A stretch of DNA of 59,575 nucleotides from an uncultured Planctomycetia bacterium. Lineage in GTDB: Bacteria; Omnitrophota; Gorgyraeia; VGKN01. Positions 1,331 through 36,500 of this stretch are shown here, one piece after another. Position numbers and translations under genes: made by a program. The stretch is taken from assembly GCA_964506845.1 (NCBI GenBank), contig CAZDNS010000006.1, positions 1-59,575 on the forward strand. The letters run 5' to 3'. The notes under the pieces are model-generated. The model was not told the DNA's origin and ran no database searches. It was given only the letters and a program-made list of their open reading frames with translations. Within the stretch, counting starts at the first letter, position 1. Every line of letters begins with the position of its first letter.

Positions 1331-4300
1331 GACCTATTTTCTCGCGCTGGTTTATTGACGTCATTTTCAATAAAATAGAGCGCTGCATCTTTAGCCTGTG
1401 CAGCTGCTAATATAGCAGTGCCCTCTGCATCTTTTGGGTCCGTGGGACGCCTAGCTGCAACATCTCCTGATGCACATACAGACGCAAGCCCATCAGAACC
1501 ATCCAGTCCTTTAACCTGCATATTCACGTCTACATCAATGTATCTTCCATTGTTTAAAGGTATTGACGGACCATATGTCTCAGTTGCAGGAAATGTGCCC
1601 AAACATTCTACGACCTGATCCACATCTACAACATACCTCTTTTTTTCTTTTACAATTTCCTCGCCTTTTGGACCTTTAATAATTTCATACCTTATACATC
1701 TAATCCCTGTAATATTGCCCTCTTTGTCACCGATATATTCAATCGCCTGGTGCAACTCATAATCCTTCATGTTTATTACGCCGATACCTTCCTCTTTGGT
1801 ATGGCCTAATTCCTCTGCACGCGTTTTCAAACTCAGATATTCCTGGGAACGGCGGTATAAAAATAAGATATTCGGATCTACGTTTGTACCCAAGCGCCTG
1901 TTCAATACATTTATCCATCTGAGCGCAGTGCGCGCGCTATCCATTGCCACATTTCCAACGCCTAAAATTGCTATAGTTGTTTCTACTTTGATTTTATCAA
2001 GTTCTGAAGATAAGGCTTCTATCGCGTAATCAGAAAGAACTACATCATAAATAAATCCATTATTAGAAACAGGCCTTTTTTTAACAGCTTCTTCTAGCCT
2101 TTTTATAACCTCTTCTTCAAACCCGTATTGTCTTAAGCCGGATATTTCTCTAAGAAATTGCTCCCTTTCTCTCATCCCGCTGTCAATCATTCTCCTGATT
2201 TCTTCTAACTGGATAGATTTACTAAAAGCATCAAGCATCCTCTTTGCTAACGGAGCGGGCGTCTTATAGTTACGTCTCATTGCCTTCATAAGAAACGTCC
2301 ATGACAGGAAATGATACGCTGAGAATATGCCGTTTAGGTGCCTGCCGGGTATAGGGCTATACTCATTGGAACTTTCATAAAGCCTCTCTACGGCTTTTCT
2401 ATATTGTTCGTCCTCAGACAGTTTTAATAACGCCTCTTTTTCTTCCCTTGCCATTTTGCCTTTACATATCAGACGTTTTTTATCAGCATCATAAATAATC
2501 TTATACTTAAGGCTTTCGGGAAACTCTATTCCTGCGGGCAGGTTTTCAAGCCTTTCAAAAGCCTCCTTATATTCCATTACCTTTGACTTACCTGCTCCTG
2601 ATGAGATAAACACCACATCAAATATCCGCCTTAATTGGTTCATGGTAAAGGCGTTATCCTCGCCTATGGGAGTATCACGTACAAATTTTACACCCATATC
2701 TTCTTCCAAATATCTGATATGTTCTTCGACTACCCCTTCTTGCAACCTGAAGGTAGGTATGCCATATCGCAAAACACCACCTTCGCCTTTCAAAGGCAGG
2801 TGTTCAAAAACAACCACCTTATAACCGGCTCTAGCAAGGTTATATGCCTCTTGTAATCCTGCAGGGCCTGAACCAATAACCGCCGCATATTTACCGTTAT
2901 GTTTGGGTTTATCCTCTGGCCTTGGTTTAGGCAAACTTCCGTATAACTTGAAATAAGTCCTGAAGATAAGATACTCAAGTTTTCCTATATCTATGGGAAC
3001 AGGTCTTTCTTCTAATTTGCCAAATGTGCAGGCTGCCTGGCACAGATATTCCTGGGGACAGATAAGGCCAAGATATGCGCCGCCAAAACTCGCATCCATA
3101 AGCATACGCATAGCCTCTTCTATCTTTCCCTGCGCCATAAGGTCAAAGAGGATATTGATTGGCAGATGAAGCGGACAGCGGCTCTCTTTGGTCTTTACTC
3201 TTTCCCATATTTCGTTTGACTCATTCAAGAGTTTCTTTCGCTCTTGTTCAAGGCCTGCTTTATCCATAGCAAGCCATCTGTCAATTAATGCTATATTGGG
3301 TTCCCGCCTTAGACTCTCGTCACCTGCAATATTGTGTTTTGCTGAATTGCTTCTTAGTTTTCCGGATATATCCTCCTGCGTTTCTTTTGTTAAAAGACCT
3401 TTAAGGAATGAACCTATTGCCTGACCCTCTTTAAGTTCTGTCTCAACCAGATTACTCTGTATCTCTTCTTTAGAAAATTTACCCTTTCCATATTTTTCAT
3501 CAAGCTTCTGGCTTAACCATGCAATTGCTTCCTCTTTATCCTTTGCCAGGAAATTAAACTCAATCTCATCTGTTTTAAACTGGCACCTTTTCATCTGCGC
3601 AAGCGTTAGAATACCATTTATAAAACTCGCCTGATTTTTAAACCTTAGCGCAAGGCTGCCTTCCTGGCCAAATCCGCAAGCATTAGTTGCACACTTGTTG
3701 CAGAGAGTATAGTCCATTGCCTCAAATCCTGCTAAGGCCGCTCCGGGCTCGCCAAGGCTCTGACTGGTCATAGTTATATAAAAATCATAAATTCTGGTAT
3801 CTGCAGGCCTTTCGCCAAGCGACGAGCGAAAATCATGCCTATGTGCTTGTATCCACGCGCTAACGACAGCATGCTCATGGGCTATTTGCGCTACATTCTT
3901 TAGCACATTTTGGCGCTCTGTTTCCGGTTTTGTTTTACTGCCATAGTAGTAAAACCACGCCACAATCAAATTTTCTTTGAGGGTGTTAAGCAGGTTATAC
4001 CATGTTCCCGTTACATCTCCTGTAAATTGAAGATAGCTGAGGAGTTCCGGATAACCGCTCATAATACTATTAAATGCCTCATCCAATTCCTCCTTTGGAA
4101 TTGGAACATCTTCAGAATTCTTTAATCTCTCGGCAAAACCTGTAAATTCCCATGATTTAGAAAACTCACCTATCTGTTTTTCAACCTCGCTAATCCAGAA
4201 ACCCGGCCCTTTTTCGCTCGATGCAAGCGTTATAAAATAACTCATTGCTGCCTCTTTAAGGCCCTGGCTTGCCTCCTTAAAAGGCGTTGGCTCTCCAAAA

Positions 4301-18518: not shown

Positions 18519-21500
18519 CTACTTAGCTCCAAGCATTGCCCTGTATGAATTCAACTGGTCTGAATAACCTTGTGGAATATTTCCTGTTGGTATTAACGCG
18601 AAGGTTGTATCGCTAAGTTTTTTAACAAGCCCTTCTATTGGCGCATTTAAAGCTATGCTACGGACAGCAGGGAAAATACCTAAATTAGCCGTGTTTTCTG
18701 GAGCTTCATTTACCTGCAGGTTAAACAGATTTTCTCTCTCCAGTCTCCACCCATCTAAATATTCCTTAGTTCCAGCTCTAACTATCTTGTTATATTCTCC
18801 TGAACCCATAAGCTCTTCTATTCCCCTCTTGGTCTTTAACTGAACTTTTCCAGAAGAAACCAAATCTTTCAAACCTGCCAATTCTAAATAGCTATCTATT
18901 TCTCCCTCTTGTATTCCCTCTTTATCAACAACAACCGTTATTCCTTCATCGCTCGCTAACAAACTATTGATAGAAAGTTGCAAGCCAAGCGCCTGCGCCA
19001 GCATATGGGGCTGTAGAACGATAAGATTCCTAAATCCTTCTTTAGGTTTTTGAAAATTGGTGGCGTAATTAAACGTTAGCCAGTTATCAGTATTAATAAT
19101 GGTTTGGGCTCTATCCATAATAGAATTATAGTAAGCTGCGAATAATAGTAACGGGCCAAGCGGCGCTGGTGTGAGTGCTGCTGGCCACGTTGATAATATT
19201 GCTTCAAACTCACTCTTCGCATTACTTAAGACATTTATCACACCTTGAGGATTAGTATTAATAAGTTGCTCTGCCTTAAAAAGTTTCTGCATATGGTTTT
19301 CAAACTCCCAGCTTATATAAATAATGTTGGCTTCTTCGTTGTAAACGAGCGGTTCCTTTTGAGTCTTTGGACCCAAGAATATGTGGGCAGAGGTAATTGT
19401 CTCTGTTTCTGGTAATAGTTTAAGAAGAAGTTTCTGAATTTCTGAATTGGCAAACCAATCAGGCATAGTATCAACCTCTAAACCTCTCTGGTATTGAGCC
19501 TGCTTTCTATCAAGGATTTTATCTCTGTCAATTAAAGATGGGTCGTTTGTTCTCATTTTGGCAATATAAGCAGCTGTATTCGGCATATCTGGTTCTTCTG
19601 TGTCTCCTTTTGCTAATTCAAAGAACATCTTCGGATGCACCTCACCAATCGCATTGCTCAATATTGCACTTATTCTGGCATCAGCAGTTGATGGATAGGA
19701 TTTAATCCTTGCCTCGGTGCCGGATGGTCTGATTATCTCCCAGGTACCGTTACTAAATTCCATATAAACTGCATCCCCTGTAAAAAGATAACGTTGTAAA
19801 TCATCTATTTGTTTTAATAAATCCTCAAGTGCCTTATCATCAGTTACAGCCTTAATCTTTGCTACCATAACCTCATCCTTTACAAGGACTTCTTTTAGAA
19901 TCGCCTTCACATCATTTAATGTGATATTGCCACTTTCTAGGGCAAATGCTAAACTCAAAAAGAAGGCAAAATTGTTATCACGCCATTCAAAACCAACATC
20001 CAACATTTCTTTCCTTCTTTCAGGCGTAGCCTGCGCAGTAGCTAAGACATCCACAAGGTCTACATCTGTCCTGAGTTCTGCTGTATTTTGCATCTGTTTT
20101 TGTTCAATAATCTTTTGGAGCATATTGCTTAAAGATATATCTTGCAAGAATTCTGCATCTTGATATAGGCCTGTTTCATTTACACCGCGCTTTAAAGCAG
20201 CCTCCCTTGCTTTATTGAACCTTTTACTTATCATAATAAACGTAAGAACGCTTGCTTCAACAGCATTCTTTTCCCTCCAGCTTAAATACCTGCGCAAACC
20301 ATCTTCTGTAGTAAGTAGTTCTGTTGAGCCAACTACCATACCGCCCGATTCTTCTCCGGCGAACAATAACCGTGGATTATAGCCAAGCCTGATAGGATTT
20401 CCAAAAATATCGTGTATAACCACCATTCTTGGCTTAAGCCCAAGTTTATGCCTTACTTCATTTATCATAAGCTGTAATTCTACTTTCCGCATAATGGAGC
20501 CTATCTCTTTAAAACCAACTGGAACTTGAACCACAGGTATATCTTCACCATTAGATAATTCAAGCCATGCACTTGAAGAAACGGTTGTTTTTATTGAAAA
20601 AAATGTGGCTGCATTGGGATCTTCAATATTCTGGCTCCATTTTCCTTCTTCTTTAAGTTGTTCTATATAGGCATCCTGAATCTGAAGGAACGTCTGATTG
20701 GGCACATAAACCGCCAAAATCTTCTCATCTGAAAGAACTAAGTATGCTATATTTAAATGTTCTAATCTCTGCTTGGTTTCTTTATCATTTTTCTCCACCT
20801 GCATTAAAACAAATCTGTCTCCATCAGGGTCTGTGGTAGGGTATACAAAACCTATTGGCTGATTCAGCATAAAAACAGGTAATTTAGACGCTGCAACAAC
20901 CTGAAGTAAACTTACATCCTCGGAAATATCGGCCATTTTTGGTCTATAATAAGCAAGCAGATTGCTATTGGCAAGTTTTCGATAGGGCACGCCCAATCTT
21001 TTGAGTAGACCTTCCTCTTCTTTTGCATATATTTTAAATTTAATATTAACTACATCGTTTTCTTTGTCCTGTCTTGGTGTTTCGCCTATATTTGAAGCAA
21101 GCTCTCTTTCGGAAATTGTTGCCACTAACACGTAGGTTAAAGGAAGGTTTCCAAAGAATTCGTCAAGCCTTGTACTGATTTTTTCAACATATCTCTTTAC
21201 GAATTCATCTGGCGGCTGTTTCTGGTTAAAATCTGTCATACCCGTATCGCCAAAGAAAGAATCGGGTATTGTGCCTGTCCAGACTATTTTACCAACAGTC
21301 TCTCTATTAAAAACCTTCTCAAATACACCTCTAAAAAACTGGTAAGCAGAGCCCCTTGCTTGGTCAAATCCAATCTTCAAGCCATTAGCCAATGCCTCTT
21401 GGACGGCTTGTATATTTGAAGAAGTAACATATGAGCCCCTTAAATATTTTGCATATTTATCGCTCACGGGTATATTGTTAGCATCAACTGGACTTTCAAT

Positions 21501-24500
21501 ATCAAAATGAATATGCTCATCACTGCTGGATGCAAACTCTATAATTAAAGGCTTACCTGTTTCAAGAATATCATCTATCTTCCTGCCGATATTATCTGCA
21601 AGGGCTACCATATCTTCTATTAAAAGCTGTGCGCCCTCACTTCTCGCTCTTCTATAAGCCTTAACATCTATACCTAATTTCTCAAGATTTGCCTCAATAA
21701 AAGGAGAAATAGGCGGCCTCAAATTCCCCATCAATTTTGAAGCATAAATATTACGGGCAGAATGACTCGCTGTATCATACATTGTAAACATTATATTTAA
21801 TACAGTTGTAATAAAAGATGTGGCTCCTATGGGCAGATAGGTTCCTCGTGATGGGCTATGCACTATTATGCCTAATTTGGCAAATCTTCTGCGCAACATC
21901 TCGCTTACCAAAGGTGTGTTATATCTAACCTCACCACCTATTATTGTTTCTGTCATGGTTGCTTCTTGTTCGGCGGCAATTTTAAGTGCCGTCTCAGCCA
22001 ACTCATTGCCCAAAAGAAGTGTTAATAAAATATTCATAGGTGAATTTAGGTCAAAAGGAGCAAGTGGGTTTTGTGAATTTCTCATTCCGGCAACAGCAAT
22101 AGGCGCCATTGCTTTGACTACATCTGCCAGTCCTTTTTTGAGATTCCATTTTTCGGCAAGTTCTTTTGTAATCTCAAGTTTAAATGGGCCGCTGTTTGGG
22201 TCTTTCAGATGCTCAATAAGCGCTGCAAGTTCAGGATATTGCGTTCGCGCCTTTTCAGCCGCTTTTTCAAAACCTTTAAGAAATTCTATTTCAAGCTTTG
22301 CGCCAAAAATAAACCTCTGCATAAGCGGTGTGATTGAATATGCAGGTTCTTCATAAGTTAAACCATCTGCAATTTTTTTCTTCTCAGTTATAAGATTAGC
22401 TACAATCTGGCGAATCATCTCTCGCCTTGCAGCTGGCTCGCTGGCAGCAATTGAAATTCTCGTAACAGTTCCTATGTCAACATCTTCACTAACTAATTCA
22501 GCTTCAGAAACCTCAACAACTTTTTTGATTCCTTCTGATATGCCTGCCTGCTTATTCGGGTTTATTCGCATAAAAACCTGCGGCTTATCCTCCTGTTCAG
22601 GTCCCACAATCCAGAGCCCGTCGCTACAAACCATAAAACTCAGTTCACTGATTTTTATATAGGGTGGAAGGCTAACAGCTATCTGTTGAGCAAGCCCGTC
22701 AAAACCATCTTTAAATGTTTTCTCTAAGTATGGCAGTAAATCAACCAAGCGAATAGCAATCTCTGCGGCTTGTGGTAATTTTTGCCAAATCCCACCCATA
22801 GTTGACGGTTGGACAACTACCTTTCCCGGCGGGTCTTCATCGCCTTTAGCCATTGCCGTTATGTAGGAAGGTAATCCCCTCAAGTCTATTTTGGTTGAAA
22901 CTAACCTTTCAAAAGGAAGTTCGGGATTTTGTAATAAACCAAAAGCTTTTTGAAAATCAGGCGACTCTGCTCCATATGCACCACTAAGAAATAGCATTTT
23001 ATCATCAATCATAGCTCGTTCTTTGGTTTCATTCCTCCTTATCGAGTCTATATCTGCTCCAGCAAATATATCTCCTTTTCTTGTCCCGCCATAAAGATGA
23101 ATAACTCCATCATTAGTAATAAGTTGTGATGCCACTCTAAGGGTCTTGGGTGTAATCGCAGTAGGAACTACAATAACCACATCAAACTTTCCGCCATCCT
23201 CACCAAGATTTTCTTCTATACCTTCTTTGTTAAATAACTTGGTGCGACCATCAAATAATCCCTGTTTTCTTAAGAAGTCAAGCCGATTACTATCTATATC
23301 TAATGCAACTATCTCCTCTGCGCCAAGATTTTTGGCTAAAAGAAGATGCATTGTCCCAACGTTACCGGCACCAATAACAGCAACCCTTTTACCTCTTAAA
23401 TCACTAACTCCCATATGAGATAAAAGTTTATCTACGCTCCTGACAACACAAGCCAAGGGTTCTGACAATACAGCCTTTTCTAATGGGATTTCTTCGGGAA
23501 CAATATTAAGCGCCTCTTTCACTCTTGCGCCCCTTACGCTAAAATACTCTGCAAAGCCTGTGGTTCTATCTGGTGTAATATTTGGATTAAAGGTTATTCT
23601 GTCACCCACTTTAAATCCTGTATCCTTTCCAGCCGCAACTATCTCACCAACTAACTCATGGCCAAATAGTGGTCCTCTATCCTCTGGAATATCCCTTGAA
23701 CTCGTTACCTCTTTTACATCCGCCCTGCAAATTCCTGCCAGAGCAACCCTTACAATAACCTCGTCTTTTGCACATTTTGAAAGGTCTATTTGTTTTTCTT
23801 GGACCGTAACCACGCCGTTTTTCAATGCACAAAATTTACAATCAACCACAGAATCAGATCTACGACCTAATGAGTCTATCATATACTTTGTCAATCCCTC
23901 ACAAGCAGGGCCGTATTTGCCAAGAATTATAGTTATTCTATCCCTAAGACCAGCCAGGAAGGGATCATCATCTAGCGGTGTTTTTTCTGGAACCAATAAA
24001 CCTCTGGCTTTATCTGCATTGTTAATTTCTTCTGAAGAGGCATTGGCAATTCCACTTAACATCGCTACCAAACTTGACGGACTATCCTCGCCAACCAAGA
24101 TTTCCAACCCATCTATTTTCCTTCCTAATAATCCTTCTATCAAACCCCTATCAATTATCGCAGTAGTCACCACCCTCTTGTTAATACCTTCGATACCTGT
24201 ATCTAAAGCACCTGTTCCTGGTAATGATAAACCTAAATTAGTTAAAGCAATTCCTTTTTCTCTTTCTGTTTTCTTATAAAGGAACTGCAAGTATTCCTTC
24301 AAAGGTATTCGCAAATCATATTTTTCGTCACTAAGACTTAACTGAGGGATATTCGCTTCAGAATTTTGTTGATTAAAGTCACGGATTCTTCTATTTAACT
24401 CCTCAACAACCTGCTGTTTTTTTTGCCCTGCCAAGCTATTCAAAGCAGCATTACGACTATCAAACTCAAAGGTTACCTGAACTGGATGCCCCTGCTGATA

Positions 24501-27500
24501 CCCCCTGCGGTCATACCGCCTATCTACTCTCACCCGAGGTATGCTAACCTCAACAACCTCAGTGCTGTCTAAACTAAAAAATTCTGCTGCCTTATCTATT
24601 GCTGCCATCCATTCCCTTTCAAAACTCGCTCTACCTTCTTCATCTATTTTTCTTTCTTCGAAGAATTCGGCCACAAAATCAATAGCTGGTCTATCTACAA
24701 GATTGCCTTGCTCATCAAACGTATAAACTTGTTTACCGCCGCAATGCGCAATAATAATCTGCCTGCGTAGATGCGCTGGTAATATATCAACAACCCTGAG
24801 TAATAAATTATTTAAATCACCACCAGAAAGAATAACCAATATTCCGCCGCGACTTAGATATTTCGTAAGCAAAACATAGTTATCAGGGGAAAGCCGATAC
24901 TTTGCTGGCATGGGTTTCTTCCCTTTAATTATCTCTTCTAATTCCTCAGCGGATAAATCAATAACCGGCCATGTAAGAAACTGGTCATTGTCAAATATCA
25001 ATACATTTGTCCCTGGCATAACATCTTCTATCTCCTCATATCTCTGCTCTGCCTCTCTAAGGGCTCCGCTTGAGAAGAAAGCTTCAACTGTATCGCCTCT
25101 ACCAAAGATACGCGCTTGGCTAATAAGTTCAGCGCTTTTGGCAAAAATATCCGAGAGTGTCCTTATTGTAGCTTGGTCCAATTTATCAACCGTGATCACA
25201 ATAGTGGGAGATTTTGCTGCTAAAGCATTGGCATTTCCCTTTGCCAAGCCATAATTCACATCAGCAACACTTAACCCTATGTGATGTGGCGTATGCACAT
25301 CATCTACTTTCAATAGAGATTCTAATGCTTTGCCCTCTGGGCGTTCATAATCACGGGCAAGGATAAGAATATCTAAAAACCGCGCGCTTTGTCCTATAAC
25401 ACCTTCAATATATGAATGTGAATCAGTCGGAAGCTCTCCTGTAAAAACAATCATTCCATTTTTTCCGGATACACTTTCCTTAAATGCTCTTGTAAGTAGC
25501 TTTAAACTGCTGTTATTAACAAGGAAATTTATATACTGACGTGCGGGATCCTCAGCATAAGCCAACGCTAAAAAGGTTGCAAGCTGTATAGCCAACAAGG
25601 TTTTTTGATCGCCCTGAGCCTCTGCCCTTTGAATGATAGGAGAAATCTGTGCTTCAAATTGTTCTCTCCTTGCTTTCACAGCAGACTCGTTATAACTTGC
25701 TTCGCCTAATGATATATTCACATCTATTCCAAGCGCTTGCGCTGCGGTATTTAAAACGCCTGTTTTAACAAAAACATCCGCCTTCGCCACCCCTGCTTTT
25801 AAGCTAACTGCATTTTTATATCGTGGAGTAAGCCTTCCAAAAATGGGCAGATTTTGAATCTTGTTCGCCATACTTATGCTTCTTAACATTTTTGCATTTT
25901 CAGCAGAATCCACGCAAAACTTAAACGCATTAATAGCCTCATCAAATAATACTGCCAGCATATCTTCATAAGAAATGCCAATTTCTTCTGCCAATAGTGA
26001 AAATTGTTTCCATAAAGAAATAGCTGCTTCATCCGGTTTAACTTCTTCATCGCCACGAAGAATATCTGTCTCATCAGGTCGTCCTTTGGCAACAGGCAAT
26101 TCGCCTACTTCTACCGTAATCCTATGTCTTTCTCTCGTTCTCTCTCCCAATTGAGCTAAAGCCACAGCGCCTTCATTCCTGACCCTTCTTACCATAGGAT
26201 TTGAATAATGGTCCTGGTTCACCATATGGCTGTAAGAGGCGATTGTATCCTCAAACAGAGTTGTCAATTCAGCGCTAGATTCTATCGTCATTTTCTCTAT
26301 CTCTATAACTATAACTGGCATTCTCTGTTTTAAAGACTCTGCCTTCTTAGATGCCTCGGCATAACCTGGGTCGCTCTTATCTAAGAGAACTATTACTATA
26401 TGGTCATCAGCCATATTCTCTGCCACTCTATCAAGTGATTTATCGCCAGGGGGATAGATACTAAGCAGTGTGGGTGAAAGTGCCTCTGGTTTATTGACAC
26501 CCTCCATAACCCACTGCCTCAATTCTTTTGCCTTGGGCATTAGGCGCTCACTGCCGATAACCATAGCTATATTCTGACGTCTTCCTAAGCGCATATTGAC
26601 GTCAATAAATCGGGCAAGCTGAAAAGCAAAGCCGTCTTTTTTTGTGAAACTAAGTTTCTGGTCAGCCGTATCGGTCACCTCTACATATCTCTGTGTAATC
26701 TTCGGGCCAAAGGCTAAATAGAAAGGCCCATATACCATTTCCGTCTTTCGGCGCATAAACCTGCCTCCTATATTGCGTTTTGGGCTAAACGGAAAAACCC
26801 TTGCGCCTGCATCAGCAAAACGTTCTCCTAATATCTTAAGCGCACCCTGGTTAGCAAATGCAATATTATGCGTAAATTTATTATGCGTAAATCCAAGAAC
26901 TTTCTCTGTCTCGGTAGTTTCACCACTACGGGACAGATAAATCCACAGACTATTGTCATCTTGAATATCGGGATGTTCTGAAAGAATCCTTTCAAGCTCA
27001 ACAGGGTTATTGACTAAAATCAATCTCGGCCTCTTTCCAAGGGTGCCTCCTTCTCTCATTTCTTCCTGCAACCTCATCATTTCATGAAGTAGGAATTCAT
27101 TTGCTCCCATACCCATAACAAAGAGCCAGTCAACATTTTCAATGCCTCTAAAATGTTCCGCAACATATTCATCTAATTGTTCTGCTACAGCAGAAAATTC
27201 CTCGTTATAATATTCTTTAACCTCTCCACGATAATTTAAATTGCCTCTTCTTTCTTCCGGCTGGCTTTCTTTATTTTGCATAATATCCTGCACTTCACTA
27301 TGAAGCCTTCTGACAACTGCAAGTTCTTCTCTATCTACTATAACCTCATCCTTGGGCAGGCTTACGCTAATAGCTACGCCGTGTTTGGAATACCCAGAGA
27401 CCTTCTCAGCATCAACTAAATCGCCTGCTTTTAAACGGGTTTGCCTTTCTGCAGGTATGGTGGGAGGAACATCGGTTGCAGCAATTTGCTCTAATTTATA

Positions 27501-30500
27501 CCGGCTGACCAATCCTTTAAGTAACGGCTGTTTTGATAAAATGTTTAAAATATCCTCTGGGTTCTTTCTAGAAAGCTCAGCCAATCTGGTAATAAACACC
27601 TGCACAGCTGTGGCATTTAGCAGAATTTCTGTCAACTGGGAAGAGGGGAGCCCTGTTGTTTGCACAATTCTTGCAAACTCTTCGCTTACGGTTTGCAGTA
27701 AGGATTCAGAAGGCTTTGATACCGGAGCAGGATGGCCACTCCCAGAAGAAGTGCGGCTTGCAGCCATATCATTCAGTGTGCTAACATAATGTAAACTATG
27801 AAAGGCTTCGCTTACTCGTGGCTCGGCATTCTCTATCAATCTGGATAGCCGAGCGGAAATATCCTTAAACCTATCTTCTTTGTTTAAGGCACTTTCATCG
27901 GTGCTCAGACGGCCTAAAATGCGCACCTGCCCTTTTTCCATCTGATATGCTAAATCACCTGCCTCGACTAAAGATATAGCCTCTCCTGAAGCGGCAGGCC
28001 AATTGAGGAAAAAGTTAATGCCATCAATACTTCCTAAAGAGATATAGAAGCGCCTGTTGCGATAATCCTTATCTACAGCATAATATATCTTGCCTATGGA
28101 AACTTGGGTTTTAATCTCGTGTCTATCAATATTCTCTCTCTCATAGTGACGGAGATTATATAAAGGTAGCAGTATCTCATCCAGCGCCTCCTTATGCCTT
28201 AATAATATCTCTGCCATCTTTCGCTTTCCTTCAGCACTTAAGTCCCATACATTAGATATACTCCCCCTAAAATCATCTTGCAAAATCAAACCTTTAAGTC
28301 TTCTTAAAAGCTCCTCAGGGTTTGGTGGTTCTTTACTCTTTAAAAGATATACAAGCGGCGCCATTGCATCAGGGACAAGGTAAAAATCCTCGCCTGCCTT
28401 TCCCTGGTCAAAGCATAATGCCACAAAAATATCTCTTAACTTATCCAAAATCTGAGCTGCAATTTCAAAGTTACCTTTTTCTATTAAGCCCGTTTCTACA
28501 GCGCGCCCTGCCTGACGCAGCTCTTCCTGCATCATAAATCTGATAATTGCCTTCTTTTTATCCTCCGCATATTTATTCCAGTTCTTTTCCAAAAATGCAA
28601 AATAGGGCTGTCTTGCTAATTCTGGATGAGCCTTAAGCGCCGCTTCTAATTCTTCGCTGCGATTTTTCTTTAGCCAGGCGTAGAAGAGAAGGTCTTCATC
28701 CAAAGCAACCGATTCGGTGAGGTTAGCCTCGTGGTTTAAAAGCAATGTCTGCAGTATTGCGGGCAACATCGTCCATTCATCGTCTATCTCTAAGAACCCA
28801 TCCCCGGGATTTGAGATATAAAATTCATTGTCAGGGTCAACGAAAAATCTTGTTTTAAAAGAATATGAGCTACCAGGAAATCTACGAGCTGCATAAGAAG
28901 AATTTACCCCATGGGAGTTTAAGTAAGCCTGCCAGGTAGCAAGGGCTCCAGAAAGATTAGCATTTATTCGCCTGAGTTCTTCAGCGGTATACAAAGGCCG
29001 TGGTTCTTTGGCAAATTTATGACTAACCTTAACCAAACCTTCAACTACTAATTCTAACTGACCCTCGGCCTTATAGCTCTTATATACACCCTTTTCTTTA
29101 ACAACTGTTTTTCTTAAAGGCGCTCTATGAGCAACTGTAAGAGGGATAGTAGACGCATACACATATGCCTCGCGGGCTAAGCTCGGAGGTATGACTATTA
29201 AACAATTTTTATAACTACCTTCTTCTACAACCTCTTTAAGTAAGTCTCTTAAATAAACTAAATCTGATATCAAGACAATATTTTTTTCTCTTAGCCCAAC
29301 TACTTTCAATCCCGCCTCTTCTGCCCTTATAACCCTTGGGTCATCCTCAGTAACTTCGTCCGCAACTATTACATGCTTTACACCTGCCAACCTTAGAGCC
29401 TCTGCGGTAATATCAGAGGTATGGGCACCTGGTTTAAATGGAGAAAGCCATTTTATATCCACGGCCAATTCCATTCCATTAGGCAGTGTGGCTTGGTTTA
29501 AATCAAACAGGTCTGCTGGGCTTTCACCCCTTAGGGCGCGGTCAAAAAGCGATATATCTGTATCCGATACAGCAAAAAAGATACGGATATCATTTTCAAG
29601 GTCAATATCAGAAAGGTTTGCTTCAATAAATTTAAAAATATCCATTAGCTCTCTTAAATATGCGGCTTCCATTTTAGCGCCGCCAACCTCAGCCTTGAGA
29701 TTAAAACCCAAAGTCGGAATGCGGCCTGAAAAGGTTCCTGATTTTTTCTGCGCTCGCACTGTCTCAACTATAGCCCTTATCAGGCTAAGAGCGGCCTCTT
29801 TTGTAAGGGATGCTCCGCCAATAAGGCCGCCGTCAATATCAACCTCAACCATAAGGCCAGCGGCATTCTTTGCATTCATACTGCCGCCATACTGAATGAC
29901 CACTTTATCTGCATCGCCACCAACTAACTCCCTAAGTATTCCCTTGATAAACCCTTGCACCTCTTCTGCTTCTTGTGGCGTAGCGGGCCGTATGGCTTTT
30001 TCGCCAATAGCCCAAATCGGCTCATAGGCTATAATAGTGTTAAGAATCTGCTCTCTTGTACGACCGGCTAAACCATTAACTACCTGACTACGAATAAAGT
30101 TCCATCCTTCCTCTTTAAGTTTCCCTTCATTTGCATCGTCCTTTGGATAGCGCATCTCTGCTGGTTCGCCTACTGCCAACACATTAATACCACCCATTAT
30201 CCCATCAGCTTGCTTTAAAAGCGCATTGACATCTTCATCAGTCAATTCATGAGCAACTCTTGATTCAGAGTGGCCGCTTAGGATACCATCCGCGCCTAAG
30301 GATTTAAGAAGTTTTATGTTCGTTTTTTCGTTTGCCTGAGCCATAAGCCGCATAGGTCGGTAAAAATAACGAACTTCGCCATCCACGATTTCCTTTTTGA
30401 CTATCCATTTAGAGCGTGCCAATGCCTCCAATACCTCTTCTGCAGAATAACTCCCTGCTACTCCACTCTCCTCTAACTCTTTTACACTTAAAGACTTTCT

Positions 30501-33500
30501 TTGCTTTAAAATCTCAAAGACTCTATCTTCTGCAATTTTTAACAAAATATTGTTAATCCCTAAAATTAATTCAGTTAAATTTTTTGTTGAAAATGCTTCA
30601 AAAACTGAGGGGTGTTGGAAGGCGGGTAGATTTGCAATCTCATTAAGTTGTGCTTGTCGAGCCTCGAGTAAAATAAAGAATTTCTCGGTGGGGCGGTATT
30701 CTAAGCGTTGGCCTTTGTCTGTTTTGACCTTTTCTTTGGTGAAGAATCCTAAACTTGCAAGACCATCTAATTCCCATGTGAGGGTGGTGCGGGAGAAGGG
30801 CTTAGCTTCTCTTCTTGGCGCGCCGCGAGTCCTATGCAACTTTCTCCACCTCTTCTTTTTCCCATCCGTTTCAACATAACCATCAGTAGTAATAATAGAG
30901 TTCGCGTTAATAAGCCCCTTTCTCCCAGCCGAATACAAATCCAAAATTGCCTCTGCCAAAGAACCTTGAGTAGGTGTAGTCGGCACTGTCATTGCGTAGG
31001 ATTCTGTGGTTGTGTTTTGTGAGGTAATCTTAACATACTGCGCTGCCTCGCCATTTATAAGCGCCCTTGCAGCAAGTCCTGTCCTATCCCATTTATTCTC
31101 TCTATCCATACCCCAATAGCGGCCCATAGCATCAACTATTCTTCCAACGCCTAACTCATCGCACTTAGTTTGCAGTTCATCAAGATATTTCTTAGCGCTA
31201 TCAGGCGAAGTATCTCTGCCGTCTAAGAAGGCGTGTATAACAACCTGTTCACTCTTAAGACCTAAGCGTTTTGCCAATTCAAGAGTAGCAAACCAATGCT
31301 CCATTGAGGAATGAACATTTCCGTCGGACAAAAGCCCTAAAAGATGAAGGGTTGTACCTTTTTGTTTAACTTGTTGCATGGCCTGTACAAGAGTTTCATT
31401 TTGAAAAAACGAGCTATCTTGAATACTTTCATTAATTAGTTCACGGGCTGTCATTAACCTCCTGCCAGCACCTATTTCTCTATGACCATTTTCTGAACTT
31501 GGAATCTCTGAAGCCTTAAGCGAGGTATGCGGATATTGCTTCCAAAAAGTATCCATATTTGGTGTATTTGCCTGCGCAATGGCATTTCCCTCTGTCTCTT
31601 TCCTTATACCCCATCCATCAAGAACAATGGTTAATATCTTATTATGGGTCGTGTTAAGTGGGCTGGTAATTAGACTCTCTTGATCCATTTCCTGCGGCTT
31701 TTCAATTCTGCGCAGATGTAACAATGTAGGTGCAACATTTGTTAAGTTACCGCCTTCTCTAAGACTAACCTGTCCATCTAAACCAATAATGATAAAGGGA
31801 ACCGGATTTGAGGTATGAGAAGTAAGCAGTTTACCTGATTTATCAACCATCTGCTCTGCGTTACCGTGGTCGGCAGTAATAACAACAATATAACCTTGCC
31901 TCTTTGCCTCTTCTATAAGCCTTCCGAGTTGTTCATCAACTACCTCTATTCCTTTTTTGGCTGCCTCAAAATCACCCGTATGACCAAGCATATCCGCATT
32001 TGCAAAATTAAGAACAATGTCTTCAATGCCTGATCTCATATCGCTAATTACTGCATTCGCTAATTCGACTGCTTTCATCTCAGGCGCTGAATTATAAGTT
32101 GCCACTTGTTGGGAAGGAATAAGCCCCCATTCTTCTCCTTCTGATTTCTCCTGTTTTTCTCCATCTAAGAAATAGGTTACATGCTTAATCTTTGCATCCT
32201 CAGCCCTTCTCATCTGGCGGATACCATGCGCAGCAAGCACCTCGCCATAGGTATTTGTTAACGGTGGTGTCTTTAAAACTACTGGAACTGTAAAAGCACC
32301 GTCATATTGAGTCATTGTTACAAATTCTACTTGAGGTACTTTGCCACGCTCAACATCTCCAGCGCGGTCTTCATAATTCTGCCCTGTAAACCACCATATT
32401 AACTGACGTGGCCTATCTGTGCGGAAGTTTACGAAAAATAGAGTATCTCCATCTTTGACTCTACCTATCGGATTCCCGTCTTCGTCAACTACTACAATAG
32501 GCAGAACAAATTCATCTCCTTTAGCCTTTCCTTTAAAATGGTCTTCTACAAGTTTATATGCACTGGCCAAAACATCACTGATTCTCTTAACTAACTTAAC
32601 CTTCTTAGTCTGTTCTTCAATCTCTATCATTCTCAGATACTTAACCCTGCGGACTAATGGCTGTCCTTGGTACTGTCCACCTTCAGCAAAATCATATGGT
32701 GGCTGCGGGTCGCCTGTCTTCAATCCAAAGGCATTTGTGGCATACGCCAAGTCTGCAATACCATTATCCATGGTTTCGCCAGAGCGATGCGATATTATCC
32801 ATCCCATACCTGCACGTTTTGCAGCCTTTATAGCCTCTAATGTTCCATACATTGTTCCATTCTGATTTACCTTTATTAAAATATCCGTGGCTGCCTCCAT
32901 CTCTATCCCTTTATTTAAGCGTTGTAGCTGTGTCACAAATAAATCATCCCCGACTGTTCTAATGCCACGTTTTGTTCTAACGCCACGTCTCATCATTTCC
33001 TTTGTCAATTTCTGCCAGCCTTCCCAGTCATTCTCTGCTAAACCGTCTTCAATGGATATAATTTTTCCAGCATATTGCTCAGCCAATTGAACATAGTAAT
33101 CTATCATCTTGTCTGAAGTCCAAGCTTTGCCTTGAAAATTATATACTCCTCTGTCTTTATCATAGAAGGAGCTTGCTGCTACATCCAAAGCCAATTTCAC
33201 ATCCTCGCCAACTCTATAACCTGCTTTTTCTATGGCTTCAAATACATATCCGATTGCTTCTGTACTATTGCCTAATCCTTTAACTGAGAATCCTGCCTCA
33301 TCTGCACGCTTTATTGTTTTTGCATCAAATCTTCCCAATAATATCTCCTTTAAGGCACTGTCTATCATGTCGCCCATTTCTAATTGTTCACGATAACTCT
33401 TAGCGCCAACTGGAACTATCATTATCTCCTGAATATCTATGCGGTCTTTGCCTAATACTTCGCCTTCTGCTTTCTTTAAGGCGTGAAGGCCCCCATTATA

Positions 33501-36500
33501 GATATTCATATAGAAATACACTGGTTCTGTTTTATCGCTAACTGCATCGGGCTCGTATTTACGAATATATTCCCATAACTCCATTCCTTGTAACTTTGCT
33601 GCCATTTTCCACAATGCCCAAGAGACAGGAACAACAGCATTAGCGCCCAAAACTGCAAAATTCTCTCCTGCTTTCTCTATTATCAATTGTTCCATTTTTA
33701 TTAAGTCTTCATACTTTCTTAAATCTAACCCGCTTTGCATTAGCAATTGAGTAATTATCTCATTAACATTCCTGATAGCCTGTTCTGTGGTTACAGTCTT
33801 TGCCTCATCTTCACCTTTAGATGCACCTGCAGGCACAGTGCCAGTCACTTCAATATCGCCTAATCTCAGCACCGCTTCTACTGTTGATTTACCGCGAGAA
33901 TCAAAAGCCTCTCTTGCCACTAAGTTAAGTTGAATTGGCGCATTACGATTGATTAAGAACTGTATTTCTGGATACTCACCGGCTATTCCTTTAGCAGAAT
34001 CAACTTGTAATGTTCTCCAATTCAGTTGGCGAGGATGTTCAAAATTTTTGGGCTCATCATCTATTAATATTAATTCTTCGGCTGAGGTTATTCCAAATTC
34101 TCTTTTAAGTATTTTAAATGCTTCGTCAAATGCCTTTGACTCCGGTTTTAGTTCACCCAATTCTGCTGAGGTGATAATACGAACATTTTGTAAAAATGGA
34201 AATTTTTTCTTTAGATATTCCGCTCTCTCTTTTTCCATATTAGTAAGGATTGCTAAATTATAACCGCGCTCTGAAATGGCTTTAACTAACTCGGCAACTC
34301 CCGGGATTTCCTTGTATGCGTCATATAAATATAACTTAAGTGTTTCTTTACGCTTATCTTTGCCTAATTCAAAAAACTCTATTGCCTTCTTAGTTTTAGG
34401 TTTTCCTATGGTTTCTCTTAAAAGCTTATTTAACACATAAGACCAGTATTCATCTGCGGAAATCTTACCCAGCCTGAAGTCTTTTGCCTCATTGCTTGTT
34501 TGAAGCCACACGCGCAATGTATCTTCATCAACGCCAAATATCTTATTCATCTTATCTATACAATCATTAAGCCCGTCTGTCAGCAACGTCCCGGTTAAAT
34601 CAAAAAGGACGGTATTGACTTTGGATAACTCAGTTGTCAGCTCTTCTGTTGCCTCCCTTATAAGCTCTTGATAGAGCGGCTGTAACTCATCAGGAAGTTG
34701 GAAGCCTTTTGCTTCTATCTCTTTCAGGAATAAAACCCACCGAAGCGCCTCGCTTGCCCCATATCTATGGTGATAACTAAACATATCAACGATGACTTCT
34801 GGAGCAATGTTTAACCCTTTAAGAAATAGCTTCACCGCTTCAGGATTTGGAATCCGACCGATTGGAGTATCAATTGCTTCTACTTTCATACCTTCAAACT
34901 TACCCGCCATTGCTAGTGCAAGCATAATGAGCCGCACATCCTGACGAAAACCTGGCCAACCTTTTCGGAATTGGTCAAAATGGAAAAAGGCAGGAGCTTT
35001 GCCATTTTGTTTGGCTTGTTTCATAACATAAAGCCAAGTATCAAGATGCTGCCGTTCAGTAGTGGCATAGAATGGCCTTAATGCAAATGGATCTGGCCTT
35101 CGTCTTCCGACTACAGCGCCTTCAACGGCAAATGTTTCCTCTGGAGCCATAAAGAATGCATCTAATATTGCTCTCTCAGGAGTATTCAGTTGGACAAGCG
35201 GAGGTTGCCCGTCTGGAATTTTGCCGCCAAAGAAAATCGCATCAATCCGTCCGCCTTTATGCCAATTGGGTGAGCGGGTTTCAAGATTTACCTTGTTCAA
35301 TGTGAAACGGGCATTTGGATGAGCCCATTTTTCACCCCGTTTGCCTTGTGGGCGTTCTGCAATAGGTTGACCTGTCCAATCCTGCCATCCCTCCAGGCTC
35401 TTTGGAGGAGTGTCTGTTTCACCTTTTACCCAGCGCTCATATTGCTCTAACTCACTCACGTCAATTGGCACAGTATCAGTTAATTCCTCCCACCATACTT
35501 TACCTGTCTTTCGGTTAATGGCAGTGTTAGTAAAGATTACGGGTTTATTTCCAGGTTTAACTTTTGGGCTGAGTGTAGCCTCAACAAGCCTTGCGTTCGT
35601 TCTGGGGCTTGTTTTTGGTGCCACAGCAAAAAGCCCGTCCTCGGGATTTGCACCCACAAGATAACCCTCCTCATCAAACCACATACCTACTAGGTCATCG
35701 CTGATTGTAAGAACCTCCCAATCATCCGCTAATTCATCAGGAGGAAGATAGGTTGCAAACGTGCTTTTACCTGAGGCGCTTGGACCGAATAACATAATAC
35801 GGTATGTTTTGCTGGTTTTCTTATTTATTAATTCAATTAAAGCCGCATGCTCTGCCAGCACAAGCGTATTCGGAGGTATTGACTCTCCTTTATCGCGAGC
35901 TCGTTTTACATTTTGATACGCTATATACTGGGCTAAACGAAGCCCAAATTTCTTTGGACCTAAGAGATTGCCGCCATAGGCTGACCCAAAAAGGCCAACC
36001 TCTCTCTCTTTTGGAAATTCAACAAACAATCTGTCCTCTGGTTCATCAGGCTTAGTGGCTCGTCTAATTTTATCCAAATCTCCTGTGGAGTGCCAAATTT
36101 TTAAAACCTCATCCGGATTAGCCGAATTAAGCTTCTGTAATGCACTATCGCCAATAACCGCCTGTCCGACTTTAACCAGTTCCAATAAACTTATCGCCCC
36201 ATAGATACTGTCTGTAACCTGCACACCCACCATCTCAATCGGAGAACCTGGGAACATAATAAATGGTATTACATACATCTTCTTTCCTTTATAGCTTCCA
36301 TACGCCCTATCTTTAAGCTGTTTTTTTGCTTCATCTGCATGCATCCAGTTATTAAAAATTCCCTTATCAGCTGGGTCGTCAGTCGCAATATGGGTCGGAG
36401 CTTCGGCGCGGGCAGTATCCTTTGGATGAGACCTATGATGGTAATTACCATCGGGAAGCGCGGTTAAAACTCCTTCCTTAACAGCAAGGTCAAAAAGACG

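Follow-up and report, generated by a model that had tools for sequence, protein, structure and literature searches.

Can a triosephosphate isomerase (TIM) whose C-terminal part comes first in the chain, and whose N-terminal part comes last, still make up one (β/α)8 barrel? This question is raised by contig CAZDNS010000006.1, a stretch of 59,575 nucleotides from an uncultured groundwater bacterium that is called, at its full length, the window below. According to the list of open reading frames (ORFs) and a Pfam scan, its minus strand holds an ORF (18519..38564) which runs without interruption over 20 kb and encodes a multi-enzyme protein of 6,681 residues whose domains, typical of central-carbon metabolism, are glutamate dehydrogenase (GDH), GTP-PEPCK, HAD hydrolase, enolase, an apparently permuted cofactor-independent phosphoglycerate mutase (iPGM), TIM, ADH-like and PGM-like. 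The TIM-like module of this megaprotein (aa 2735-3140) was the sole TIM that a local hidden Markov model (HMM) scan found within the window. We consider it quite likely that the module is a naturally circularly permuted TIM. Judging from its residues it may also be an active enzyme, a claim that we rate somewhat lower than the permuted architecture because loop 6 is altered.

Two parts of TIM in swapped order

All eight motifs quoted in a preliminary description of this locus are present on the minus strand within the ORF: GHSESR (aa 2764-2769, nt 30258-30275), AYEPIWAIG (aa 2846-2854), DGGLIGGASL (aa 2911-2920), IPTLGFNLKAEVGG (aa 2949-2962), IRIFFAVSD (aa 2993-3001), GAHTSDITAEALRLAGVKHVIVADE (aa 3046-3070), GLKVVGLRE (aa 3085-3093) and CLIVIPPSLA (aa 3121-3130, nt 29175-29204). 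The description placed the start of the module at the β4 motif GHSESR, which has to be corrected: the conserved start is YRPMRLMAQAN (aa 2735, nt 30362), about 29 residues earlier, and a short β3 (RLMAQAN) and α3 precede β4. The conserved end lies near aa 3140 (nt 29145), where the relatives become unalignable after ...LARQAYxxA. Between these limits, part A (29739..30362, minus strand, aa 2735-2942) comprises a short β3' without loop 3, α3, and β4 through α8. Part B follows on the same strand in three pieces, namely B1 (29523..29738, aa 2943-3014) with the linker SGTFSG, β1 (TLGFN), α1, β2 (RIFFAVS) and α2, B2 (29355..29522, aa 3015-3070) with a second β3, loop 3, α3 and β4 (ELAVDIK...KPGAHTSDITAEALRLAGVKHVIVADE), and B3 (29145..29354, aa 3071-3140) with a degenerate α4, β5 (GLKVVG), α5, β6 (CLIVIPPSLA) and α6.

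Homology to TIM was found for both parts. Part A matches the Pfam family PF00121 at aa 2750-2931 (E 3e-37, 128.8 bits against a cut-off of 20.1), the match covering profile positions 76-244 only, in agreement with the local HMM. Compared with an alignment of 114 stand-alone TIMs it aligns to TIM positions 75-247 (hhalign Prob 100, E 5e-54), and its identity to stand-alone TIMs of bacteria is 41-48%. Part B (aa 2943-3140), taken as a three-sequence profile, is colinear with TIM from position 1 to about 196 (hhalign Prob 94%, E 1.1e-7), with a score of 54.5 compared to at most 28.5 in 20 column-shuffled controls. It is also colinear with a profile of four archaeal TIMs from the PDB over positions 3-153 (E 6e-5), where NLK comes to lie under NFK and IPPSLAR under EPPELIG. 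A plain HMM detects in part B only TIM 59-96, i.e. β3-β4 (E 0.07-0.3), and misses β1-β2; profile-profile comparison is needed for β1-β2 and for β5-β6. Thus, from the two partial HMM matches in swapped order that the preliminary description expected, the first is strong and the second is weak and limited to β3-β4.

The pieces of part B differ in how clearly they are recognised alone. B2 matches TIM 52-95 (hhalign Prob 93, E 3e-7) and positions 61-89 of the Pfam TIM profile (E 0.067), and its top PDB matches are the TIMs 1hg3, 2h6r and 4y90. B3 alone gave no significant hhalign match to TIM; it falls inside the colinear alignments of the whole of part B with bacterial TIM (to position 196) and with archaeal TIM. 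B1 matches, its N-x-K being in register, the β1-β2 tails of the trimmed permuted TIMs described below (hhalign E 1.7e-4); these tails in turn match the N-terminus of canonical TIM (E 6.7e-7), and MAFFT places GRIPTLGFNLKAE of B1 under GRVPYIGANWKTY. As far as its sequence indicates, B1 corresponds to the first quarter of the barrel, moved to a new position in the chain. The chain order is consequently not the colinear β1-to-β8 order: TIM 75-247 (part A) precedes TIM 1-196 (part B), in line with the order of a C-terminal part followed by an N-terminal part that had been described. When a test sequence was de-permuted, its Pfam TIM score rose from 127 to 148 bits.

An archaeal-type TIM as the source of part B was also considered, on account of the PGAHT, NxK-type and PPxL motifs and the archaeal top PDB matches. 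The idea was rejected, the four archaeal TIMs scoring 37 compared to 41-52 for random sets of four bacterial ones.

The source of the sequence being a metagenome assembly, the unusual order could in principle come from an assembly or gene-calling artefact such as a chimeric contig joining two TIM genes. The frame is, however, continuous over the whole ORF, and per-run contigs from three runs of the groundwater metagenome cover the entire module, showing 0 differences and no joints in window region 28900-30600; all runs that a search found for this site were of DNA. The same order of part A and then part B recurs in four more assemblies, which come from other samples. These two sets of contigs together exclude an assembly error, and we give the artefact explanation practically no weight.

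Catalytic residues and loops

By alignment, all five catalytic residues of TIM (Asn11, Lys13, His95, Glu97 and Glu165) have equivalents in the module. Part A contributes His2765 (30270-30272, minus strand; equivalent to His95), Glu2767 (30264-30266, minus strand; Glu97) and, within AYEPIW, Glu2848 (30021-30023, minus strand; Glu165), and the motif GFNLK on β1 of B1 holds Asn2955 (29700-29702, minus strand; Asn11) and Lys2957 (29694-29696, minus strand; Lys13). The catalytic residues are hence split between the two partial copies, as the preliminary description had it. It was also right that the second β4 has lost its His, the equivalent residue of B2 being Asp3069, and that possibly degenerate β5 and β6 follow; B3 takes part in the colinear alignments of part B, and its equivalent of Glu165 is Pro3126. 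Among the five module sequences known to us (see below), N-x-K, GHSE, AYEP, YGGS and GGAS are invariant in 5/5.

Loops 7 (IQYGGSMNAKNA) and 8 (DGGLIGGASL) of part A are intact and identical to those of bacterial TIM. Loop 6 (PIWAIGEKAIRPAT) departs from the canonical sequence, as it retains Gly171, has other residues in place of Thr172 and Gly173, and is longer by two. All five module sequences lack loop 3 in part A, where the alignment shows a gap of 9-11 residues, and the only loop 3-like motif of the module is PGAHT (KPGAHTSDIT, G-A-x-T, with Thr3049) in the dead copy B2. RLMAQAN aligns with canonical β3 (xxGAQN), its R, L, Q, A and N being invariant.

Relatives of the module and selection

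A search of 1.84 billion representative proteins with part B yielded two clusters only, P0007 and P0008, both megaproteins and 58-61% identical to the query; no canonical TIM was found with part B alone in this set at E 0.001. Pattern scans added L003 and L004, L001/L002 being the same sequence as P0007. Besides the window, the carriers of this module, which we call half-trimmed, are therefore P0007/L002, L003, L004 and P0008, and in all of them it lies inside a megaprotein. Stand-alone proteins with the whole module (233-740 aa) were also searched for, and the best 120 of 4,137 matches were all ordinary TIMs of about 250 aa, matching 40-46% of the query. The records of the carriers are labelled Candidatus Omnitrophota, except for one metagenome-assembled genome (MAG) labelled Planctomycetales. 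This one is L003 (CAZPNW010000082.1, 'uncultured Planctomycetales bacterium'), whose module has about 90% identity with the modules of two Omnitrophota MAGs; the contig could be wrongly binned or labelled, or the module could have been transferred.

In P0007, L003 and L004 the module is preceded by a class II aldolase and followed by PGI; in P0008 it comes after GAPDH and PGK and before an iPGM-like region. With different neighbour enzymes in different proteins, it behaves like a portable cassette. A winged-helix-like segment (FEILKQRKSLSVKELEES...VRYFYRP; window 30363-30500, aa ~2690-2734) stands directly N-terminal of the TIM module in the window and is also present in P0007 and P0008. It is absent from L003 and L004, where a short linker joins the class II aldolase to the module, and this absence fixes the N-terminal boundary of the module at YRP.

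The ratio of nonsynonymous to synonymous substitution rates (dN/dS), computed among the three close relatives L002, L003 and L004, was 0.09-0.10 for part A, 0.08-0.12 for B1, 0-0.10 for B2 and 0.2-0.34 for B3. The redundant partial copy is thus maintained by purifying selection and is not a decaying remnant, and the loop 3 block (B2) is constrained as strongly as the catalytic parts.

These data also bear on the notion that the module is no longer an enzyme and that its two incomplete TIM fragments serve as a scaffold or spacer, with no complementation of an active site. The altered loop 6 and the lack of loop 3 in the catalytic copy would fit such a role, as would the leader-like start of the host protein, an odd place for glycolysis, and the existence of dead TIM units in relatives (the first unit of P0133 and P0134, see below). 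Yet the five catalytic residues and loops 7 and 8 have stayed invariant among module sequences that are 56-64% identical overall, dN/dS is about 0.1, and the identity of part A to ordinary bacterial TIMs goes far beyond what a scaffold needs. We regard this explanation as having a rather small chance of being correct.

Other megaproteins carry TIM in further arrangements. P0002, P0004, P0005 and P0132 have a canonical TIM. A trimmed permuted form, consisting of β3-β8 followed by GRVPYIGANWKTY...β2 and nothing more, is common in related megaproteins (P0003, P0129, P0130, P0131, P0006 and P0135). The N-x-K segment placed after β8, seen in the trimmed relatives and in P0133 and P0134, is a recurrent and conserved solution. 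P0133 (aa ~1679-2250) and P0134 (aa ~1351-1930) contain permuted TIM units in tandem, a dead one and then an active one. The first unit is dead by its motifs, with GSGT for GHSE, INGD for YGGS and FSPN for GNWK. It keeps a canonical-like loop 3 (GGFTG), and the active second unit has a shortened loop 3, which parallels the window module, where loop 3 is likewise in the dead copy. In a maximum-likelihood tree of the shared β3-β8 region, the window type sits on a long branch with a support of 100, and the trimmed modules group in a clade of their own (96). The deeper nodes reach 51-66%, and the tree is compatible with one or with several permutation events.

Predicted structure of the module

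Structure was predicted with AlphaFold2 (AF2), in a first run from a 3-sequence alignment, which was too shallow, and in a second run from 110 rows comprising five module sequences, five trimmed permuted modules and 100 canonical TIMs. The latter alignment was made without the N-terminal fragments of canonical TIMs, which MAFFT had misplaced, and without P0133 and P0134. The second run reached a mean predicted local distance difference test (pLDDT) value of 83.1 and a predicted template modelling score (pTM) of 0.72, and its five models agree (pLDDT 79.6-83.1). It predicts eight consecutive β-α units, namely β3', β4-β8, β1 and β2, with strand pLDDT of 79-98 (part A 79-98, strands of B1 about 83-93). 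After a linker of low confidence, 4-5 further β-α units formed by B2-B3 (pLDDT 60-90; those of B3 66-90) appear as an extra α/β subdomain.

With Foldseek the model aligns to TIM crystal structures over 200-212 columns, at a root-mean-square deviation of about 2.9 Å and TM scores of 0.63-0.66 per target length. This span has the size of β3 through α8; Foldseek aligns sequentially and lists only TIM matches, and cannot show whether a permuted barrel is closed. That β1-β2 close the barrel is inferred from the conservation of the catalytic residues and from the eight β-α units, which follow one another directly and are confidently predicted. Of the single closed barrel that the preliminary description proposed to look for in a predicted structure, the model gives the eight β-α units, and their closure is probable.

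An alternative arrangement of the strands would use the β3'' of B2. The barrel would then have the order β4-β8, β1, β2, β3'', RLMAQAN would be a linker, and only β4''-β6'' would be surplus. Such an arrangement would explain why the sole loop 3 motif (PGAHT) is located in B2 and why this block is under a constraint as strong as that of the catalytic parts; it would also agree with the Pfam match to part A, which begins only at profile position 75-76, and with the disorder of the N-terminus of part A in the shallow first AF2 run. The run with the deeper alignment, on the other hand, models RLMAQ as a strand (pLDDT ~79-88), the number of columns aligned by Foldseek is enough to take in β3, and the invariant R, L, Q, A and N of RLMAQAN align with canonical β3. 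Moreover, part A has an α3 of its own directly before β4, and α3'' would clash with it or be surplus. We find the use of β3'' improbable, and keep to a barrel that begins with the β3' of part A.

Several results weigh against a permuted and working TIM barrel or against its origin by duplication. A direct comparison of part A with part B detected no similarity between them (hhalign Prob 0.1, E 0.48), each being related to TIM profiles only, and the match of B1 alone to the N-terminus of canonical TIM is weak (hhalign E 1e-3 to 1e-2). The first AF2 run was poor (pLDDT 63, pTM 0.47), and confidence was low in loop 1 (58) and in the linker between B1 and B2 (49). Closure of the barrel, as well as the contact of Asn and Lys with His and Glu, is deduced and not seen in the models. 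In addition, loop 6 reads AIGEKAIRPAT in place of the canonical lid AIGTGKTAT, which could affect catalysis.

Possible origin of the proposed permutation and putative role of the second copy

In the reading that we prefer, the module would form a (β/α)8 barrel from one chain, with β3'-β4-...-β8 supplied by part A and followed by β1-β2 from B1. An extended α8 and a short linker would connect part A to B1, a joining made feasible by the neighbouring positions of the N- and C-terminus in a TIM barrel. The putative active site would be composed of Asn2955 and Lys2957 from the relocated β1 and of His2765, Glu2767, Glu2848 and the phosphate-gripping loops from part A. After β2 the chain runs into the second, catalytically dead β3-β6 copy (B2-B3), which would form an extra α/β subdomain.

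Such a chain may have arisen from two TIM units in tandem, brought about by duplication or by fusion, and from subsequent trimming in which β1-β2 would have been lost from the first unit and β7-β8 together with the catalytic residues from the second. An origin by duplication and trimming fits the module because TIM ~59-170 is present twice, active in part A and dead in B2-B3. A tandem duplication trimmed at both ends, as originally suggested for the locus, is accordingly consistent with the two partial swapped copies and the doubled segment. Since the two parts are not detectably similar to each other, duplication of the same gene, as opposed to the fusion of two diverged TIMs, is not proven.

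In canonical TIM, loop 3 of the partner subunit reaches the active-site region and full activity needs dimerisation. The dead B2-B3 piece is maintained and holds the only loop 3 motif of the module, and for this reason its role is most likely structural, replacing loop 3 and the interface of the partner subunit. A more specific idea is that the dead copy takes the place of the dimer's second subunit within the same chain: docked onto the active barrel, it would give a fused pseudo-dimer with PGAHT placed beside Asn2955 and Glu2767. Among specific roles we favour this one, tentatively and with a rather low probability. If true, the module would be a self-sufficient, fused pseudo-dimer TIM that works as a single megaprotein module. 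It would also be a living intermediate of permutation by duplication in the archetypal TIM barrel, and canonical, tandem (P0133/P0134), half-trimmed (window) and fully trimmed (P0003 type) stages would be found in one bacterial group.

Comparison with known systems

The most common enzyme fold takes its name from TIM, which is also a standard model in work on folding, on dimer-dependent catalysis and on protein design. With canonical TIM (TpiA, EC 5.3.1.1, PF00121; structures 5ibx, 1b9b and 4iot) the window module has in common the catalytic set and loops 7 and 8, and its predicted structure superposes over about 200 residues. It differs in that the chain runs β3-8 and then β1-2, in that loop 3 (GAFTGE, with Thr75 at the dimer interface) is absent from the catalytic copy, and in that loop 6 has two extra residues and no T-G as found in AIGTG. 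Furthermore, a dead β3-β6 copy of about 125 aa is appended, and whereas the canonical enzyme is a dimer of 250-aa subunits, the window module is embedded in a protein of 6,681 aa.

The trimmed permuted TIMs of Omnitrophota megaproteins are closer. They have the same start at β3, the same placement of β1-β2 after α8, the same style of junction (G-R-x-P...G-x-N-x-K) and the same type of host, namely multi-enzyme megaproteins mostly from Omnitrophota. They end after α2 and keep loop 3 in the first part, while the window type runs about 125 aa further.

The model of permutation by duplication, said to go back to Ponting and Russell and to Jeltsch, assumes tandem partial copies, the middle of which is a complete fold, and a redundant end segment, and in these respects the window module is alike. 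Peisajovich et al. reportedly tested the model experimentally on DNA methyltransferases. Unlike in the model, the redundant segment of the window is under purifying selection and seemingly has a role of its own, and the two copies can no longer be recognised as similar. Barrels have been circularly permuted by engineering, and natural permutants are known from barrel families other than TIM: GH70 glucansucrases compared with GH13, and transaldolase compared with class I aldolases. These also show a rotated β-α order with the catalytic geometry kept, in other families and at other cut points, and to our knowledge none of them concerns TIM itself.

In the full-text literature searched, about 8.4 million papers, no description of a natural TIM permutant, trimmed or with a second copy, was found. 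West-Roberts et al. (bioRxiv 10.1101/2023.11.21.568195) report that giant proteins of Omnitrophota contain domains of TIM, PGI, FBPase, PGM and aldolase, and a 2026 preprint (10.64898/2026.06.07.730766) defines a 'multi-enzyme metabolic' class of such proteins; in the passages searched of the two texts the stem 'permut' was not found. The window module goes beyond a plain permutation, as a redundant partial copy is kept, which the duplication model predicts; selection acts on this copy, in which the sole loop 3 of the module is located. Should these findings be confirmed, the module could provide a natural test case for how permutation proceeds, for whether TIM can do without dimerisation and for how enzymes adapt to being strung together in giant Omnitrophota proteins.

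Other regions of the megaprotein

The stretch of about 650 aa after the TIM module (window 27195-29144, aa ~3141-3790) has no Pfam match at E 0.01, and neither P0007 nor P0008 shares it, PGI or the iPGM-like region occupying this place there. The N-terminus of the megaprotein (window 38250-38564, aa 1-105) is hydrophobic and leader-like (KKLVALIVAQTFLVTSLILPSPAYS...HLAPP), which is odd for a chain of cytoplasmic-type enzymes. Upstream of the TIM module lies a phosphoglycerate mutase domain (window 31047-32564, aa ~2000-2530) whose Pfam matches also occur in swapped order, with positions 65-250 of the Metalloenzyme profile at aa 2099-2287 preceding positions 1-145 of the iPGM_N profile at aa 2377-2524. 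Thus a second enzyme of the megaprotein, iPGM, looks circularly permuted as well.

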